Shown: positions 3,566-38,717 of the stretch, one piece after another | Numbering within the stretch: the first letter of the stretch is position 1 | How the letters are laid out: each line of letters opens with the position of its first letter | Source of the DNA: a virus | Lineage: Duplodnaviria; Heunggongvirae; Uroviricota; Caudoviricetes | Virus record (IMG/VR): IMGVR_UViG_2724679293_000007 | Coordinates: 1-64,000 of that record | Reading direction: 5' to 3' (one strand) | DNA length: 64,000 bases | Translations under genes and position numbers: made by a program | The notes under the pieces: generated by a model | Seen by the model: only the letters and a program-made list of their open reading frames with translations | Told to the model about the DNA's origin: nothing | The model's database searches: none

Positions 3566-3940
3566 ATGATGACACTAAAACATTTTCTTGACCGCCCATT
3601 ATGGGCGGCAGCAGCAGGCTATGACTTTAATTATATGGATTGCATGTCTTATACCGCCAATGCATACGACCATTCCTTCAGTCTGCTGTTTAATTCTTTA
3701 AGAATACTGCCGCAAACAGAAGTTGGAGAGCTTCATTTATGGCTATTGGGCTTTATCGCGGCTGGAGTTGGTATTGCTGTATGGCCTTTTATTTTCTGGC
3801 TGGTGGCTGTTGTAGTGTGGTTTAAGTGCAAGACATACCGGAGAAAGTATTTCTTAGGTGATGGAATGACTGATATTGCCAAAATGAACATTGAAAAATG
3901 GACTAAGGAATGTGAAAAGAAATGGCGCAAAAAGAAATGA
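3566..3940 (+). CDS. membrane protein (124 aa)
   Basis: ORF track; long hydrophobic segment LHLWLLGFIAAGVGIAVWPFIFWLVAVVVWF. Confidence 0.5.
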   Translation: MMTLKHFLDRPLWAAAAGYDFNYMDCMSYTANAYDHSFSLLFNSLRILPQTEVGELHLWLLGFIAAGVGIAVWPFIFWLVAVVVWFKCKTYRRKYFLGDGMTDIAKMNIEKWTKECEKKWRKKK

Positions 3941-4854
3941 CCAGAATCACTGAAGAGCGTATATCAGAGATTATTTCCCGTATCGAAATGTATGGTCACG
4001 GTGCTGGATATACGGCAGATGAAGTATTGGCACTTGCCCAAATGACTTTGGCGGCTTGCAAAGATGATAAAAAAATGAAGCTTATCGACTTGTTAGTGAA
4101 GGAGCTGCCTAAGTGCGGCGGGTGGCCTGATGGAATGAGTTATTGTTACCTACCCAGTGTCAATTTAATGGCACCATGCGCGACTTTTGCTTTTGGCTCA
4201 GACCACAAAAAAGACACTTTCTTTGGGCGCAATTTTTGTTGTGAGATTGAGCTTCCAATTGGTGACCTTGATAGCGATGAATACCAGTCAGTTGTCACTC
4301 GCGAACAATACGAATCAGCTCTCATAGCGTCGCAGAAAGTCGAGTTCAATGGTGATGAACTTGAAAGTAAGACTTACAGGTTGGATTTTGGGCAATGGCT
4401 GGAACAGCAACGCGGGAAAATCGATGTGGACTGTGGTTGTGTGTCCACTGAAACATTCATGCACTGGCTGCGGGTAGCTTACGAGGCTGGCAACTATCCG
4501 GATATTCCGGATAGTTCGGTGCCAGCGCCAGGAAAGGGCGTCACCGGTGAACGTATCCGAATTAAGCCGCATGTTTATCGCGAACTGGTTAACCGCCTCC
4601 ACGATACAGCGGTCAAGTGTGCTGGCACCCAGCAATTACGAGAAAGAATTAGCCGTGTTTTGGGCGACGTTATTACGCCAGATCATCATAAACAAGCCGA
4701 GAAAAGTGACCTGGAAAGGTGTCACCTTGAGGCGGCATTAAACATTAAGCCGGGGCATACGCTTGGCATTATTGATGCACTGTTGGTTCATAAGATGGCC
4801 AGGGCTTTATTGTCGTTGGTGGACGCTGGTGATACAAGCGAGGGTGAAGTATGA
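3922..4854 (+). CDS. hypothetical phage protein (310 aa)
   Basis: ORF track; overlaps neighbours at both ends. Confidence 0.55.
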   Translation: MAQKEMTRITEERISEIISRIEMYGHGAGYTADEVLALAQMTLAACKDDKKMKLIDLLVKELPKCGGWPDGMSYCYLPSVNLMAPCATFAFGSDHKKDTFFGRNFCCEIELPIGDLDSDEYQSVVTREQYESALIASQKVEFNGDELESKTYRLDFGQWLEQQRGKIDVDCGCVSTETFMHWLRVAYEAGNYPDIPDSSVPAPGKGVTGERIRIKPHVYRELVNRLHDTAVKCAGTQQLRERISRVLGDVITPDHHKQAEKSDLERCHLEAALNIKPGHTLGIIDALLVHKMARALLSLVDAGDTSEGEV

Positions 4855-5213
4855 GAGTTGCAGATCACATCAAACACCTTGAAAGAATTATCGAAAACGG
4901 TGAACTCTTAAGAGATCAGATGAGACGCACGGCAGAAGCCAGGGAGGCGATAATCCGCAGTCAGGCTGGTAAATTAAAGCAATTGTCAGAGATTAACACG
5001 CTATACAAGAACAGACGTAACCGGGCGGTGATGCGGCTTCAGAAAGCACGTAATGAAATTAAATTGGTGGAGGCAAAACTGAAAAAACAGATCCAGCGTT
5101 ACGATCAGCAAGATGCTTTTTATGCCGCCATCAAGGCGGCTGCTAATGAAATAGGCATCTGGAAGTTGCTGGTGGAGAAAGCAAAGACGAAGTTAAATGC
5201 CAACGAAAGCTGA
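4851..5213 (+). CDS. hypothetical coiled-coil protein (120 aa)
   Basis: ORF track; ATGA overlap; last gene of + operon. Confidence 0.5.
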   Translation: MRVADHIKHLERIIENGELLRDQMRRTAEAREAIIRSQAGKLKQLSEINTLYKNRRNRAVMRLQKARNEIKLVEAKLKKQIQRYDQQDAFYAAIKAAANEIGIWKLLVEKAKTKLNANES

Positions 5214-5288
5214 ACTACAGGTGCCCACCAGCACATACAGAAAATGATTGTTTCCACATCAAGGAGATTTTAATGTTTCACTGAAACA

Positions 5289-5426
5289 TTAAGTAAGCCA
5301 GTGCATAATTCCATTTTTTACTGACCTTAAAAGCAAAATCAAAACGATGATGAGGATAATAGCCAGAATCTGGCTAATAATAGGCGCATCTAAAAATGCA
5401 CTCAGGAACTGAAAAAAAGCGTTCAT
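5289..5426 (-). CDS. possible small hydrophobic protein (45 aa), candidate type I toxin-like peptide
   Basis: Minus-strand ATG 5426-5424 to TAA; MNAFFQFLSAFLDAPIISQILAIILIIVLILLLRSVKNGIMHWLT; AGGA upstream; sits in a 1-kb otherwise non-coding region. Confidence 0.25.
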   Translation of the reverse strand: MNAFFQFLSAFLDAPIISQILAIILIIVLILLLRSVKNGIMHWLT

Positions 5427-5468
5427 TCAGGTGGTTCCTTGTCAAATGTAAAGGTGCACTTGCTCACG

Positions 5469-5497
5469 TTGACGTAGAAACCCAACCCCTATATAGT
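5469..5497 (+). promoter_or_regulatory. sigma70-like promoter (TTGACG-17bp-TATAGT)
   Basis: Hexamers at 5469-5474 and 5492-5497 with 17-bp spacer. Confidence 0.3.
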
Positions 5498-5587
5498 TGG
5501 ATTCGGTGAATGAAAGTCGTTAACGTGAGCTTACGGCACATGTTTTCGGAAAAACATCAGGGAACGGCTAATTCCTTGATGCGGGTG

Positions 5588-5614
5588 GGGTCTGTAATGC
5601 AGACCCTATCTATT
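5588..5614 (+). terminator. possible intrinsic terminator (GGGTCTG-TAATG-CAGACCC then U-rich)
   Basis: 7-bp perfect stem, 5-nt loop, followed by TATCTATT; about 110 nt after the putative promoter. Confidence 0.3.
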
Positions 5615-6288
5615 AACGTCATGATTGCATCTCAAATTTTCTCCTTATCTTCAATTAATCTACATTCATTTCATCTGTTAGCCACCACAATATGTAGAAA
5701 ATGGCCCTCTTGCAAGTGCATAACTTTGTGGATAACTCAGGAAGGAAAAAGTGGCTTTCGCGCACCTTCGGTCAGACAAGGTGTCCGGGAAAGTCAACGC
5801 AAAGAAAAAAATTGTTAAAAATAACGTTTGTTGGAATTGTATATTTTTATCCCCTTCAATGGTTAGCATTCTATTAACATCTTTTTTTAGAGACAGAAAA
5901 ACATATCGTAACAACATATATACAGTGTTAAGAGGCGAGTATTATCCTGCGGTGGGAATTCTGGGCGCTGTTAGATTCGACTTTCTCAGCAGGATTACAT
6001 CGTCAACTTGCGACGTTGCCGTATGACTTTCGTGTGATAGGTGACAATGATGCGGCTAGTGAGTTACTTGTGAAGTTTTTCGGAAAAGGTTTTGTGGCCT
6101 CGGATCTTGATGAGCTACAGCAACATGAAGTGTCTAATTTGATTTTTAGCCATAGCCAATAAGCCTCCCTCCTCCATCAAGGCCACAATTTGTGACCTTA
6201 AACAATTTGTTTTCTGCTTTTTCTTATTTGAGAAAATAACGTTGTTGACAGCTAATAGGCTCGTTGTTGTTATACATGCCTGTATAGA

Positions 6289-6645
6289 TTATGACCGTAA
6301 ATTATTAGCGGATTTTAAGCCATATTCACCGTTGTAGAAATTACTTATGTTCCACTCATTAGGAAGTTCTTTTCTGTCCAATGTATAGTGGCGCACGATA
6401 TAACGATCTTCATCTTCTTCGATGGACAGGCGGACATAGCCAATGTGAATCACCGATACGGGCGGTGTTCGTATTGCATAGATGTCGCGGAGATATACCG
6501 GCAGCTCGACAAATGCATCAGGTGCATCTGTGATGCTCGTTTTTTCACAGTATTCATATAACGCATCGTTGATATCGTTAAGAGATTCATGATCGTATAT
6601 TTCCAGGTAATTACCGCGATAGCGATGGTACTCGACTTTAGCCAT
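6289..6645 (-). CDS. hypothetical protein (118 aa)
   Basis: ORF track; start ATG directly abuts stop of upstream gene (TGA-ATG). Confidence 0.5.
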   Translation of the reverse strand: MAKVEYHRYRGNYLEIYDHESLNDINDALYEYCEKTSITDAPDAFVELPVYLRDIYAIRTPPVSVIHIGYVRLSIEEDEDRYIVRHYTLDRKELPNEWNISNFYNGEYGLKSANNLRS

Positions 6646-6960
6646 TCAAAATCCCCTGTTATCGTTTTGCATTTCTCTAATCCGGTTCAGAACTACTTCG
6701 TGCTGGACTTGGATAGCGGCTTTTTCGTTTTCAAGCCGGGCAATAGACATCTCTAATTCTTTGCTGTACCAGGCGAGCCGGGCCAGGTTCATCCGGTTGT
6801 GGTCGAGAGTTGGAGACACTTCGACGCGATCCCTTTCTTCCTGCTTTAATGAGAAGAGATTCATCTCATCCCTTGAGGAAAATTCAGCAACAATTTCTTG
6901 TTGATGATCCGGTCGCTGCGGCATCCTCGCCAGTATAAATGGCGGTTCTTTTGAAAACAT
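6646..6960 (-). CDS. hypothetical protein (104 aa)
   Basis: ORF track; co-directional with neighbours. Confidence 0.5.
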   Translation of the reverse strand: MFSKEPPFILARMPQRPDHQQEIVAEFSSRDEMNLFSLKQEERDRVEVSPTLDHNRMNLARLAWYSKELEMSIARLENEKAAIQVQHEVVLNRIREMQNDNRGF

Positions 6961-7014
6961 GAATGTCGGTTCAGACCGTGTTTTTACCCAGCTTGCCTGC
7001 TGTCTTTCGGCAAG

Positions 7015-7230
7015 TTAACAGGCTTCATCATAGTTATCTGCCAAACAAAGCACGGATGGACGGTCCCACGCCCCACCATTCAGACAATAAACTACAATTT
7101 TCCCGTCAGGTTGTGTAACCCCATATGGATGGTCCCACCAGGCGTCCAGCTGAGTTTTAGAGCGTTTCTCGTTAGGAGTGCAGTCAAAATTTTTGGGCAA
7201 TACAGGATCGAGAGGAATGCGATTAGGCAT
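7015..7230 (-). CDS. hypothetical protein (71 aa), divergent from humD
   Basis: ORF 7015-7464 in track runs into humD promoter; start reassigned to Met 79 (ATG 7230-7228) with AAGGAA RBS. Confidence 0.45.
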   Translation of the reverse strand: MPNRIPLDPVLPKNFDCTPNEKRSKTQLDAWWDHPYGVTQPDGKIVVYCLNGGAWDRPSVLCLADNYDEAC

Positions 7231-36801: not shown

Positions 36802-38717
36802 GCCGCTACCCCCGCTTTCTGGATTGCTACCAGCAGATCAGCCAGGTGGCGAGCAGCGCCATTAACCAGCTCTTCGTTTTCCTCAAAACGCCCGGCAGCC
36901 TGAAGGGCTGCAATCGCTTCCCGGACATTACCCCGGGCGTTACGGATCTCCGCCATGTCAGTGCTTTGCATATCCATCACGTTATTGAGATATTCAATGG
37001 CTTTATTAGCCTCTGCATCTGCTTCGCTAACCGTTTCATCAGGCTGTGCCGGGGCAGGTTCTGGCTGAGTAATCTCACCGACTTCGGCCTGCAATGCATT
37101 GATCATGCTCTGCACCATTTTCTCGGTGCCAGCGCCCCCCGGAAACGCAATATTGGGGAAAGTTTTTTGAAACTGAGTTTTCAGCATTACGCGGAACTCG
37201 TCTGGTGAGCTGGTGGCCAGCTCCAGAGCTTTTTGTGCATATTTGCCAAACGGACCATTAGTAAGTGTCTTCGCCAGGAAGTCGAAAGAATCCTCGCGAG
37301 GCAATAACTTCAGGTCGTACTCACTCATTTGCTGATCAGAAAGCGGGGTATCGTAAGTAGCAATGCCGTAGCGTGCATATTCATAATACGGGTCACCTTC
37401 ATCAGGGCGCGGCAGAATTGCTTTGTTACCTTCAGGTATTGCGCCAGGGGCCGCCGGACGCATTTGCAGGGCATATCGATATGCACCTACAGAGACTTCT
37501 GGTTCAGGCGAAGAGCTACCGGTATCCTCCGCTGGTTCAGGTTCGACGTTTTCCGGTTTATGTTCTTCTGGTTGGACCAGGTATTCCGATACATTACCCG
37601 CTTTATAGGCTTTAAACAGCTTGCCGATCGCATCTGCCATGTCCACACCCTGTATGGATTTAGCCTTGATCATGTACACGCTGCCATCCGAATCGGTTAA
37701 CTGGATATACCCTTCGCCGTCCTCAATGAATTGCTTCATTGATGCACCATTACTGAGCGTCACTTCCCCGTTCATATGCATACGATTTTTGATACTGGCA
37801 AGGCGATCCATCATCGCGCGAGAGTGTCCACCAGTCATCCCTGCAGGAGCAATGGTATCGCGCCCACCAGTGCGATTGAGCTGATCAATCTCCGTCTGCA
37901 AACGCTCATTCTCTTCATAAAGAGAATCCGCTTCCGATGCAACAGCGTTAATTTTCTGCTCCAGATCTGCCTTCTGCCCTTCTACCGCTGCCACCTGATC
38001 CACGAGGTCGCTCATGGCATCCTCTTTCTGGTCACTGTCAGCCTGTAGTTGGGTTATTTCATCAACAAGGGCTTTTTTCTTCTTCTGCGCACGCTGGAAT
38101 TTTGCCGAGTTTTTCTCTGCAAGGTTGGCAAGTTTCATGGTGACCTGCGCCAGCGTCATATCACGTCCACTCATCGGAGCAACTGTGTGAGTAACGTCTT
38201 TTTTATTCAGTAAGAACTGGAAAGCAACCAGCGTATCGCTATTGGTGATCCGGTTTTCCGCTGTCGGGCTATGAAACAGAATGCTGATAGTCTGACCATC
38301 ACTGAGCGGAATAATGGCTGGCAAGACCGGCAGCCCGTTAACGTTACGTGCCCGGCCAATTTCAGCGCCGCCGATCGCGCGCGCGCCGCTCTGGGCCACA
38401 TCCCCCGTTTTATCACTCCCCGCAGAGATTCCGGTACCATTCAGCTTCTGGTTCAATGCCCGGACAAATGCCTGCATGGTCCGGTGTAACTGCAAACGAG
38501 TAGAACTAATCGCCTCCAGTAAATCCGTAGCACACCAGTGGATCGGCGTGTCATAGAAGAACGTAGCCTCGATTTCCTCCAGGGTGTTGGATTCCGTCAT
38601 CAGATAGCGGTCCTCACCGGCCATTAATGCGCGATATTCATCATCAGTCACTGGCGGGGGAAGCACGTCAAGCCCAGGCTTGATCGTCACCCCTTTATTG
38701 ATATTGAACTGTTCCAT
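36798..38717 (-). CDS. darA: DarA antirestriction protein (639 aa)
   Basis: Size and operon position (lydA-lydB-hdf-darA-ddrA-ddrB) as recalled for P1. Confidence 0.7.
   Translation of the reverse strand: MEQFNINKGVTIKPGLDVLPPPVTDDEYRALMAGEDRYLMTESNTLEEIEATFFYDTPIHWCATDLLEAISSTRLQLHRTMQAFVRALNQKLNGTGISAGSDKTGDVAQSGARAIGGAEIGRARNVNGLPVLPAIIPLSDGQTISILFHSPTAENRITNSDTLVAFQFLLNKKDVTHTVAPMSGRDMTLAQVTMKLANLAEKNSAKFQRAQKKKKALVDEITQLQADSDQKEDAMSDLVDQVAAVEGQKADLEQKINAVASEADSLYEENERLQTEIDQLNRTGGRDTIAPAGMTGGHSRAMMDRLASIKNRMHMNGEVTLSNGASMKQFIEDGEGYIQLTDSDGSVYMIKAKSIQGVDMADAIGKLFKAYKAGNVSEYLVQPEEHKPENVEPEPAEDTGSSSPEPEVSVGAYRYALQMRPAAPGAIPEGNKAILPRPDEGDPYYEYARYGIATYDTPLSDQQMSEYDLKLLPREDSFDFLAKTLTNGPFGKYAQKALELATSSPDEFRVMLKTQFQKTFPNIAFPGGAGTEKMVQSMINALQAEVGEITQPEPAPAQPDETVSEADAEANKAIEYLNNVMDMQSTDMAEIRNARGNVREAIAALQAAGRFEENEELVNGAARHLADLLVAIQKAGVAA

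Follow-up and report, generated by a model that had tools for sequence, protein, structure and literature searches.

We examined a 64,000-nucleotide (nt) stretch of viral DNA (positions 1 to 64,000 of IMG/VR record IMGVR_UViG_2724679293_000007, hereafter the window), and in it the gap at positions 5214-6288, whose left 600 nt hold an unannotated open reading frame (ORF) for a 45-residue hydrophobic peptide on the minus strand, a plus-strand promoter, PupfN, followed by a predicted structured RNA of about 110 nt, and a minus-strand promoter aimed at the ORF that resembles the promoter of the host nrdAB operon. These elements may belong to a type I toxin-antitoxin (TA)-like module, a reading that we develop and weigh below. 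Judged by its sequence, the window is a P7/P1-like phage-plasmid: over 5000-6500 its identity to phage P7 and several P1-like records reaches 99.6-99.7%, and within that range P1 (NC_005856) aligns with it over 5000-5766 only. The genes flanking the gap (4851-5213, plus strand, and 6289-6645, minus strand) are convergent, as an earlier preliminary description of this DNA had reported. The P1 counterpart of the gap is the pmgV-upfMNO-hot interval, annotated with three plus-strand "unknown" ORFs (upfM, upfN, and upfO) and several predicted promoters, and the P7 annotation of the same interval lists Upf91.3, 91.4, 91.6, and 91.7. P1-like phage-plasmids have eight hypervariable regions, one of which, also a recombination hot spot, runs from pmgT to humD (PMC9603915). 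By a CRISPR interference screen, upfN and upfO are non-essential for lytic growth, and the same paper tabulates upfM as non-essential on the basis of a previous survey of deletions (PMC10695390).

Promoter-like sites in the region do not exceed chance expectation (3 found, 4.8 expected) and the significance of any of them must therefore come from comparison with relatives. We extracted 57 loci from phage, plasmid, and viral-contig records, which sort into no more than three lineages: that of the window and P7, that of P1 (~96% identity), and a divergent one (~77-81%) that occurs on IncY and other phage-plasmids. Nothing more distant was found in scans of viral contigs, metagenome contigs, PLSDB plasmids, and all complete E. 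coli genomes, and a 19-mer scan of GTDB representative genomes produced a single chance match, in a Bacteroidetes metagenome-assembled genome. In the divergent type the left flank is formed by the type I restriction-modification genes hsdM/hsdS, which replace pmgTUV; in the two divergent loci L003 and L004 (IncY and other phage-plasmids; locus positions 1-2022) the elements described here lie upstream of hsdM/hsdS, and in L004 humD comes next, ahead of apbC(mrp) and metG, both of host origin. The annotated plus-strand ORFs did not withstand this comparison, as upfM/Upf91.3 is frameshifted and upfN/Upf91.4 runs into stop codons in the divergent lineage. We consequently rejected plus-strand coding, which bears out the earlier view that the gap is devoid of convincing long ORFs.

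The 45-residue ORF (MNAFFQFLSAFLDAPIISQILAIILIIVLILLLRSVKNGIMHWLT; 5289-5426, minus strand) is present as originally reported. Its product has one predicted transmembrane helix (approximately residues 15-33, which also form the best 19-residue Kyte-Doolittle window, with a hydropathy of 3.1) followed by a basic, polar C-terminal tail. A Shine-Dalgarno (SD) sequence, AAGGA (5440-5436), lies 9 nt upstream of the ATG (5426-5424), and in the divergent lineage its counterpart, GAGGA, lies 8 nt before the ATG, though the surrounding 36 nt are only 61% identical. Being shorter than 60 residues and hydrophobic, with a single transmembrane segment and its own SD, the ORF has the generic features of a type I toxin, and we regard its product as a candidate toxin or small membrane protein. 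The conservation of the ORF across P1-like genomes had been proposed as a check on it, and in every one of the 57 extracted loci, spanning all three lineages, it is undisrupted, with 45 codons, the same start and stop and zero indels within its 138 nt, while indels are found in both flanks. A further 15 loci, recovered from metagenome contigs by a peptide-pattern scan, encode the peptide at 100%, 96%, or 59% identity.

Between the window and the divergent lineage the ORF is 76% identical at the nucleotide level. The differences (33 of 135 nt) include 12 that are synonymous, a share enriched over the ~22% expected, and the ratio of non-synonymous to synonymous rates (dN/dS) is 0.41. The peptide substitutions are mostly exchanges among I, V, L, and F that retain hydrophobicity, and the N-terminal motif FFQFLSAFLxAP and the basic tail behind the helix are kept across the lineages. 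Stop codons interrupt all five other frames across the ORF stretch. Together, these sequence features constitute moderate evidence that the ORF is coding.

Searches with the peptide recovered no known family. There was no match below E = 0.25 in Pfam, including Hok/Gef, Ldr, TisB, Ibs, Fst, and other curated type I toxin families, none in NCBIfam, and only an insignificant one (E = 0.058) in PHROGs. A phmmer search of 1.8 billion representatives returned only frameshifted copies of the same peptide, and a word-index search and tblastn against phages returned the same three lineages or frameshifted copies only, so that no relative outside P1-like elements was detected in these searches. A weak tblastn match of the peptide at 37726-37812 of the window was dismissed as spurious, as it lies antisense to a 639-residue gene. 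We also observed a promoter-like sequence on the plus strand (CTGAAA-17-CATAAT, 5281-5309), identical with the predicted "P1upfM" promoter of P1, that would read antisense through the whole of the 45-residue ORF; its -10 element is destroyed in the divergent lineage.

The plus-strand promoter (TTGACG-17-TATAGT, 5469-5497; predicted start ~5501-5505) agrees with the sigma70 consensus at 10 of 12 positions. It was correctly noted in the preliminary description, is conserved, and was already known, being annotated in P1 as "predicted sigma 70 promoter PupfN." Downstream of it lies the candidate antisense RNA of about 110 nt (5504-5612, plus strand), predicted to form three hairpins: HP1 (5517-5549), HP2 (5555-5581), and HP3 (5583-5611). 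The ~190-bp core that contains these elements (5463-5650) is the best-conserved part of the region: identity to the divergent lineage is 97.6% in the promoter segment (5463-5503), 93.8% in the first 47 transcribed nt, and 84.7% in the HP2-HP3 region, vs. 61-76% in the flanks. The predicted fold of the plus-strand RNA has an energy of -44 kcal/mol (z = -4.83), and none of 200 shuffled sequences was as stable, whereas the opposite strand of the same stretch folds worse (-29.6 kcal/mol, z = -2.73). Many stem positions are G-U pairs, which suit the plus strand only, as they become C-A mismatches on the other strand. Among six distinct variants, HP3 has one compensatory pair (U-A to C-G) and two changes from G-U to A-U; differences in HP2 are confined to the loop, and three pairs are broken across the six variants.

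A hairpin terminator had been proposed at 5588-5614. The hairpin is there, with a 7-bp GC-rich stem in its core (GGGTCTG-TAATG-CAGACCC, 5588-5606) and a tail, TATCTATT, that extends to 5614; as an intrinsic terminator, however, it is only borderline, since the tail (UAUCUAUU) is interrupted and can pair into an extended stem, and a terminator scan did not flag it. A cmscan of 4500-7000 on both strands (E <= 1) found no Rfam match, with Sok, IstR, OhsC, RdlD, Sib, and SymR among the families covered, and a covariance model built for the RNA detected neither a paralog within the window nor a relative in any of Cyrano, PhiR41_1, and E. coli K-12. Within the 64-kb window the only outstanding complement of the RNA is the minus strand that it overlaps, and no trans target elsewhere in the window scored above shuffled sequences. 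An inverted repeat with 13-nt arms that are 92% complementary (GCTCACGTTGACG at 5462-5474 and CGTTAACGTGAGC at 5518-5530) brackets PupfN. Its core 10 bp are invariant and its outer two pairs are lost in the divergent lineage; it could represent an operator pair or a long-range RNA stem.

All the elements in the original inventory of the gap are present, but the inventory missed the promoter aimed at the ORF. This nrdA-like promoter, on the minus strand at 5687-5715, consists of a -35 element TTGCAA (5715-5710), a 17-nt spacer and a -10 element TATTGT (5692-5687), with a predicted start at ~5679. The register is that of the nrdAB promoter of E. coli K-12 (TTGCAA-17-TATCTT), TATTGT occupying the very position of TATCTT. 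Just ahead of the -35 element are two DnaA boxes, TTATCCACA (5735-5727) and TTATGCACT (5723-5715), which are invariant in all three lineages and K-12 and are also noted in the P1 annotation. The resemblance to nrdAB was recognized previously, as a GenBank entry of 1993 (M95666) labels an "nrdA-like promoter" and a "dnaA box" on this strand in P1; the P1 and P7 annotations assign the promoter no product.

The promoter overlaps a 130-nt segment (5697-5825) homologous to the E. coli region upstream of nrdA (the ypaB region), with identities to K-12 of 94.6% in the window, 81.7% in P1, and 77-78% in the divergent lineage. That the window/P7 lineage is closest to E. coli here suggests recent recombination or gene conversion with the host chromosome. 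A 64-nt query from the window (5697-5760, where the query ended) matched the ypaB region of all 5426 complete E. coli genomes, and the plus-strand ORF at 5701-5877 (Upf91.6 of P7) is the counterpart of the small host ORF ypaB. The homology stops at the -10 element, and the first and second NrdR boxes and the nrdA leader are consequently absent (box layout from PMC12176259). The site thus has the DnaA boxes, TTGCAA, 17-nt spacer, and TATnnT of an nrdAB-type promoter and lacks its NrdR boxes. A candidate NrdR box at 5490-5496 (TATATAG) was rejected, as by eye the box spacing was wrong relative to the 16-bp NrdR box (PMC12176259), and so was the idea that the sequence following the promoter is a remote homolog of the nrdA 5' untranslated region, as blastn gave nothing beyond the -10 element. 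In E. coli, nrdAB is repressed by high levels of DnaA-ATP and induced by replication stress (PMC11853086), and DnaA is among the listed regulators of nrdA (PMC12176259). Cyrano (OV696614, our locus L060) has an nrdA-like promoter of its own with DnaA boxes (TTGCAT-17-TATCTT, at ~1395-1530) and no 45-residue ORF. A strong bidirectional terminator (AAAAAGCCCAGTTGACTAGGCTGGGCTTTTT) lies ~75 nt downstream of that promoter, and Cyrano may thus produce an sRNA (small RNA) of ~80 nt under DnaA-box control.

We found no minus-strand terminator-like site within 5427-5679 and no other annotated or conserved minus-strand gene downstream of the nrdA-like promoter. As the 45-residue ORF is the only conserved downstream frame and no terminator intervenes, a transcript initiated at ~5679 would carry the ORF behind a leader of ~250 nt (5427-5679, minus strand; the extent follows from the position and orientation of the promoter). 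PupfN and the nrdA-like promoter are convergent, ~175 nt apart, and with a start at ~5679 the leader would overlap the entire plus-strand RNA; both transcripts are predicted, and full complementarity between them requires the mRNA to start at the nrdA-like promoter. Both the leader (z = -3.25) and the whole mRNA (z = -4.47) are predicted to fold stably. Within the leader is a conserved island (5619-5647, minus strand) comprising UAAGGAG (5647-5641), 10 nt, and an AUG (5630-5628) that opens a 3-codon ORF, which is a bare start-stop in the divergent lineage. Besides a 17-nt insertion at the segment edge, 36 of the 38 positions of 5613-5650 are identical in the divergent lineage. The island may act as a ribosome standby site or in closure of the 5' and 3' ends. 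With regard to the latter, the sequence UCUCCUUG just 3' of the ORF (5260-5267, minus strand) pairs with UAAGGAGA of the leader (5647-5640) in the consensus fold, with seven of the eight pairs retained in the divergent lineage, and this modeled helix is very tentatively reminiscent of the fold-back inhibition of hok.

Other structures considered for the leader were set aside: the 12-nt inverted repeat 5254-5265/5573-5584, which closes the 5' and 3' ends in a single-sequence fold, had arms without covariation by eye; sequestration of the SD by codons 7-8 was likewise rejected by eye; and its sequestration by a leader UUCC would involve only 4-5 bp with one ambiguous covarying pair. The leader also contains a chain of overlapping mini-ORFs (5557-5630, minus strand), in which AUGCAAUCAUGA shares AUGA with a 21-codon ORF (5622-5557) that is followed by UGAUG. 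The 21-codon frame is open in the divergent lineage, its changes being mostly non-synonymous, and it probably reflects conservation of RNA structure rather than coding.

Our preferred reading, to which we assign a probability of roughly 45%, is that the nrdA-like promoter, the 45-residue membrane peptide, and the opposing antisense RNA constitute a type I TA-like module. In this model the left 600 nt of the gap would be a single module of two convergent, overlapping transcription units. The nrdAB-promoter homolog would fire on the minus strand at ~5679 to produce a structured leader of ~250 nt and the 45-codon ORF with its own SD, and PupfN, located inside the leader, would fire in the opposite direction to produce the three-hairpin RNA, which would match leader nucleotides ~65-175 with perfect complementarity. 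By duplex formation, cleavage, or a block of translation, and along with collisions between polymerases converging from the two promoters, this antisense RNA would prevent synthesis of the peptide. The peptide would be made upon induction of the nrdA-like promoter (by analogy with nrdAB, at low DnaA-ATP or under replication stress) or, alternatively, upon decay of the antisense RNA, and its insertion into the inner membrane would stop growth or be lethal. The model supposes that each promoter is active, that the ORF is translated into a toxic product, and that the nrdA-like promoter is under DnaA control, all of it drawn from the features and comparisons above.

Several points weigh against this reading. 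When 33 substitutions were placed at random in simulations, 13% of the runs left the ORF open, and its 19 amino-acid changes are about the number that random substitution would give. No known toxin family resembles the peptide in profile and homolog searches, and no terminator was found 3' of the ORF. The nrdA-like promoter agrees with the consensus at only 8 of 12 positions, a score that explains its absence from our promoter scan list, although the native nrdAB promoter is alike in this respect. With diversity limited to three lineages, the covariation comes down to a single pair, and the 3' end of the RNA is uncertain, as HP3 is without a clean U-tract. Moreover, an RNA acting purely as a cis-antisense regulator would not need such strict conservation of its primary sequence, which suggests extra constraints; candidates for these are protein binding, the operator-like inverted repeat, and trans targets. 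It is also feasible that the conserved island is a short recombination patch. Finally, P1 already has an addiction module, phd-doc.

An alternative that we consider rather unlikely, and yet the strongest of those weighed, is that PupfN is chiefly an upstream promoter with a folded, attenuator-like leader serving the next plus-strand gene, hot or humD, which acts in DNA replication or repair, or the promoter of a trans-acting sRNA with host targets, and that the ORF encodes a non-toxic membrane protein or is not controlled by the RNA. Most relatives carry hot (P1 and the IncY-lineage locus L003) or humD (L004) as the next gene on the plus strand, for which PupfN could accordingly provide an additional upstream promoter and a regulatory leader. 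The annotators of P1 assigned PupfN to the plus-strand ORFs, the window retains a remnant of the humD upstream region, and the weakness of HP3 as a terminator makes read-through plausible. The strict conservation of the first 47 nt of the RNA is, in addition, typical of a seed or of a protein-binding leader. On the other hand, the element is unchanged in the window/P7 lineage, which is without an intact downstream plus-strand gene. The hot gene has its own late promoter directly upstream, and any read-through would have to proceed past the nrdA-like promoter, which points the other way. As for an sRNA, no trans target stands out within the phage-plasmid.

A little less probable again is that the ORF is a chance, untranslated frame and that the conserved 190-bp core is either a regulatory site at the DNA level (a promoter with operator-like inverted repeats and DnaA boxes on its flanks, e.g., for DnaA titration or sensing) or a recent recombination patch. 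The simulations and amino-acid changes just cited fit a chance frame, as do the facts that gene callers almost never call the ORF and that database matches are only to frameshifted variants; the region is visibly mosaic, in keeping with its place in a known recombination hot spot of P1-like plasmids (PMC9603915), and the inverted repeat brackets PupfN in the fashion of an operator. A chance frame would nevertheless have to account for the absence of indels from 138 nt that are flanked by indels on both sides, the maintenance of an SD at the right spacing where the nearby sequence is 61% identical, the enrichment of synonymous changes (12 of 33 vs. ~22%), and the retention of hydrophobicity and FFQFLSAFLxAP, in a stretch where none of the other five frames is open and the annotated ORF that overlaps it is disrupted. 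A DNA site is at odds with the variation in the core, which follows the logic of a plus-strand RNA helix.

The preliminary description had likened the layout to tisB-istR and shoB-ohsC, with a candidate sRNA of about 110 nt; the ORF beside a conserved promoter and a predicted three-hairpin RNA stands, but the analogy is not supported. Although the ORF and the sRNA promoter are divergent and 43-70 nt apart, a locus of the tisB-istR, shoB-ohsC, or zorO-orzO type, with an mRNA starting near the ORF and a divergent sRNA pairing in trans through a short patch, is highly improbable, given that the best duplexes between the RNA and a short mRNA (5498 to 5284), at -17 to -21 kcal/mol, are no better than those of shuffled RNAs and differ in site between lineages, that no minus-strand promoter-like site occurs at 5427-5500, that no direct repeat joins the two units within their conserved parts, and that there is no match to IstR, OhsC, or OrzO in Rfam or to toxin families in Pfam.

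Among characterized systems, the TA-like module would have most in common with hok/sok of plasmid R1 and with ldrD/rdlD. As in these, a single-pass membrane peptide would be encoded behind a long, highly structured leader, and a short, fully complementary antisense RNA, here predicted, would arise from within the leader well upstream of the toxin SD; with hok/sok it would also share an antisense promoter of the constitutive type, a plasmid-borne location, and a possible helix closing the 5' and 3' ends. It differs in that the peptide has no sequence similarity to Hok/Gef or Ldr, the ORF has no overlapping, coupled frame of the mok kind, and the promoter of the mRNA carries DnaA boxes and is homologous to that of nrdAB. 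The antisense RNA, at ~110 nt and with three hairpins, also departs from Sok RNA, which is 64 nt. The likeness to tisB/istR-1 and the related dinQ/agrB, zorO/orzO, and shoB/ohsC loci extends to a small hydrophobic ORF with a long leader, an sRNA gene pointing away from it, and an sRNA that would act far upstream of the ribosome-binding site of the ORF. A further parallel with tisB would be a link from DNA metabolism to the toxin promoter, made through LexA in tisB and through DnaA boxes here. The transcripts of those loci are non-overlapping and pair through ~18-21 nt of trans complementarity, whereas here no trans patch exists and complementarity arises only via overlap; there is, further, no LexA box at the promoter and no family match.

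Compared with E. coli nrdAB itself, the phage-plasmid promoter shares the 130 nt at 94.6% identity, the two DnaA boxes, the -35 element TTGCAA, the 17-nt spacer, and a -10 element in register; it lacks NrdR boxes 1 and 2 as well as the leader and the gene of nrdA (PMC12176259), and is directed at a small ORF and against a second promoter. In the searchable literature, c4, which acts on ant in immI, is the one antisense RNA that we saw mentioned for P1 (bioRxiv 10.64898/2025.12.28.696737). While c4 is likewise an antisense RNA regulator of P1-type phages, it belongs to another locus, has another target (the antirepressor) and another mechanism, and bears no sequence relation to the RNA described here. 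A literature search that did not include the main P1 genome paper found no paper on the 45-residue ORF, the antisense RNA, a product of the nrdA-like promoter, or a type I TA system in P1. Neither the peptide nor the RNA could be placed in a known family, and the nrdAB likeness of the promoter had been recognized before.

The remaining features of the gap are less conserved. A perfect palindrome reported at 5272-5290 (AATGTTTCA-C-TGAAACATT) is present, with arms that are in fact 11 bp long (TTAATGTTTCA-C-TGAAACATTAA, 5270-5292), and overlaps the stop codon of the 45-residue ORF (5289-5291). Perfect palindromes with arms of at least 11 bp occur twice in the 64-kb window, vs. ~0.17 expected from Markov-1 simulations, the second being AACTATCCGGATATTCCGGATAGTT (4492-4516), inside a 310-residue ORF at 3922-4854. 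The palindrome at the stop codon, however, has a 1-nt deletion in the largest group of P1-type viral contigs and is degenerate in the divergent lineage, where a weaker hairpin with one compensatory pair survives; no U-tract follows it on either strand. The mini-ORF ATGTTTCACTGA (5273-5284) was also found as reported behind AAGGAG (5261-5266), with a spacer of 6 nt, not 7, but it too is not conserved. Since the symmetry and the ATG are lost in other lineages, we rejected both as conserved functional sites. The "strong SD" attributed to the mini-ORF is the plus-strand face of UCUCCUUG (5260-5267).

The gap had also been viewed as an unusually long non-coding region. Its left ~600 nt would form the conserved module, and the right ~460 nt (5826-6288) consist of gene and regulatory remnants and recombination scars. 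The first of these (5826-5945, plus strand) is a remnant of the region upstream of humD that includes a degenerate half LexA box and ends where the humD ATG of Cyrano lies; window positions 5711-5945 are 81.7% identical to the Cyrano sequence directly upstream of its S24 peptidase (humD-like) gene. The second (5951-6162, plus strand) is the 3' remnant of a gene that is full-length (174 residues) in phage PhiR41_1. A 48-residue ORF in it (6016-6162) matches the C-terminus of PHROG 17952, "DNA primase" (E = 2.4e-26, profile positions 22-68 of 68), and in P7 IS903 sits inside this stretch, at approximately window position 6035. The length of the gap is thus attributable to recombination scars in a hypervariable region and not to one large functional non-coding element. 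Beyond the gap, the lxr/Upf94.2 homolog at 6646-7230 (minus strand; 194 residues in P7 and 190 in P1) is split into two ORFs in the window by an in-frame TAA that replaces Glu72 of P7, P1, and an IncY plasmid, and the window copy is likely a pseudogene or the product of a sequencing error.

P1 is among the most used and best annotated of phages, and P1-like phage-plasmids commonly carry resistance genes in E. coli and Salmonella. The module spans only ~500 bp and both of its promoters and the ORF are readily mutable, which makes the idea directly testable; should the model be wrong, the gap is still explained as a conserved regulatory core with recombination scars. The broadest form of the proposal, which we advance as doubtful, is that P1/P7 phage-plasmids carry a new type I TA family whose toxin is driven by a captured host nrdAB promoter, restrained by an antisense RNA and linked to replication. 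We are similarly reserved as to whether such a family would be a second addiction or stress module beside phd-doc, hidden under the misannotated upfM and upfN. If the model is true, the annotation of P1 and P7 would be wrong here: a peptide gene on the minus strand and an antisense RNA would take the place of upfM, upfN, and upfO (Upf91.3 and 91.4 of P7), and the "nrdA-like promoter" of 1993 would gain a product. The type I TA repertoire would gain a family with a toxin promoter apparently wired to DnaA, not LexA, and a membrane toxin would be tied to the replication-initiation status of the host, through the level of DnaA-ATP or replication stress.

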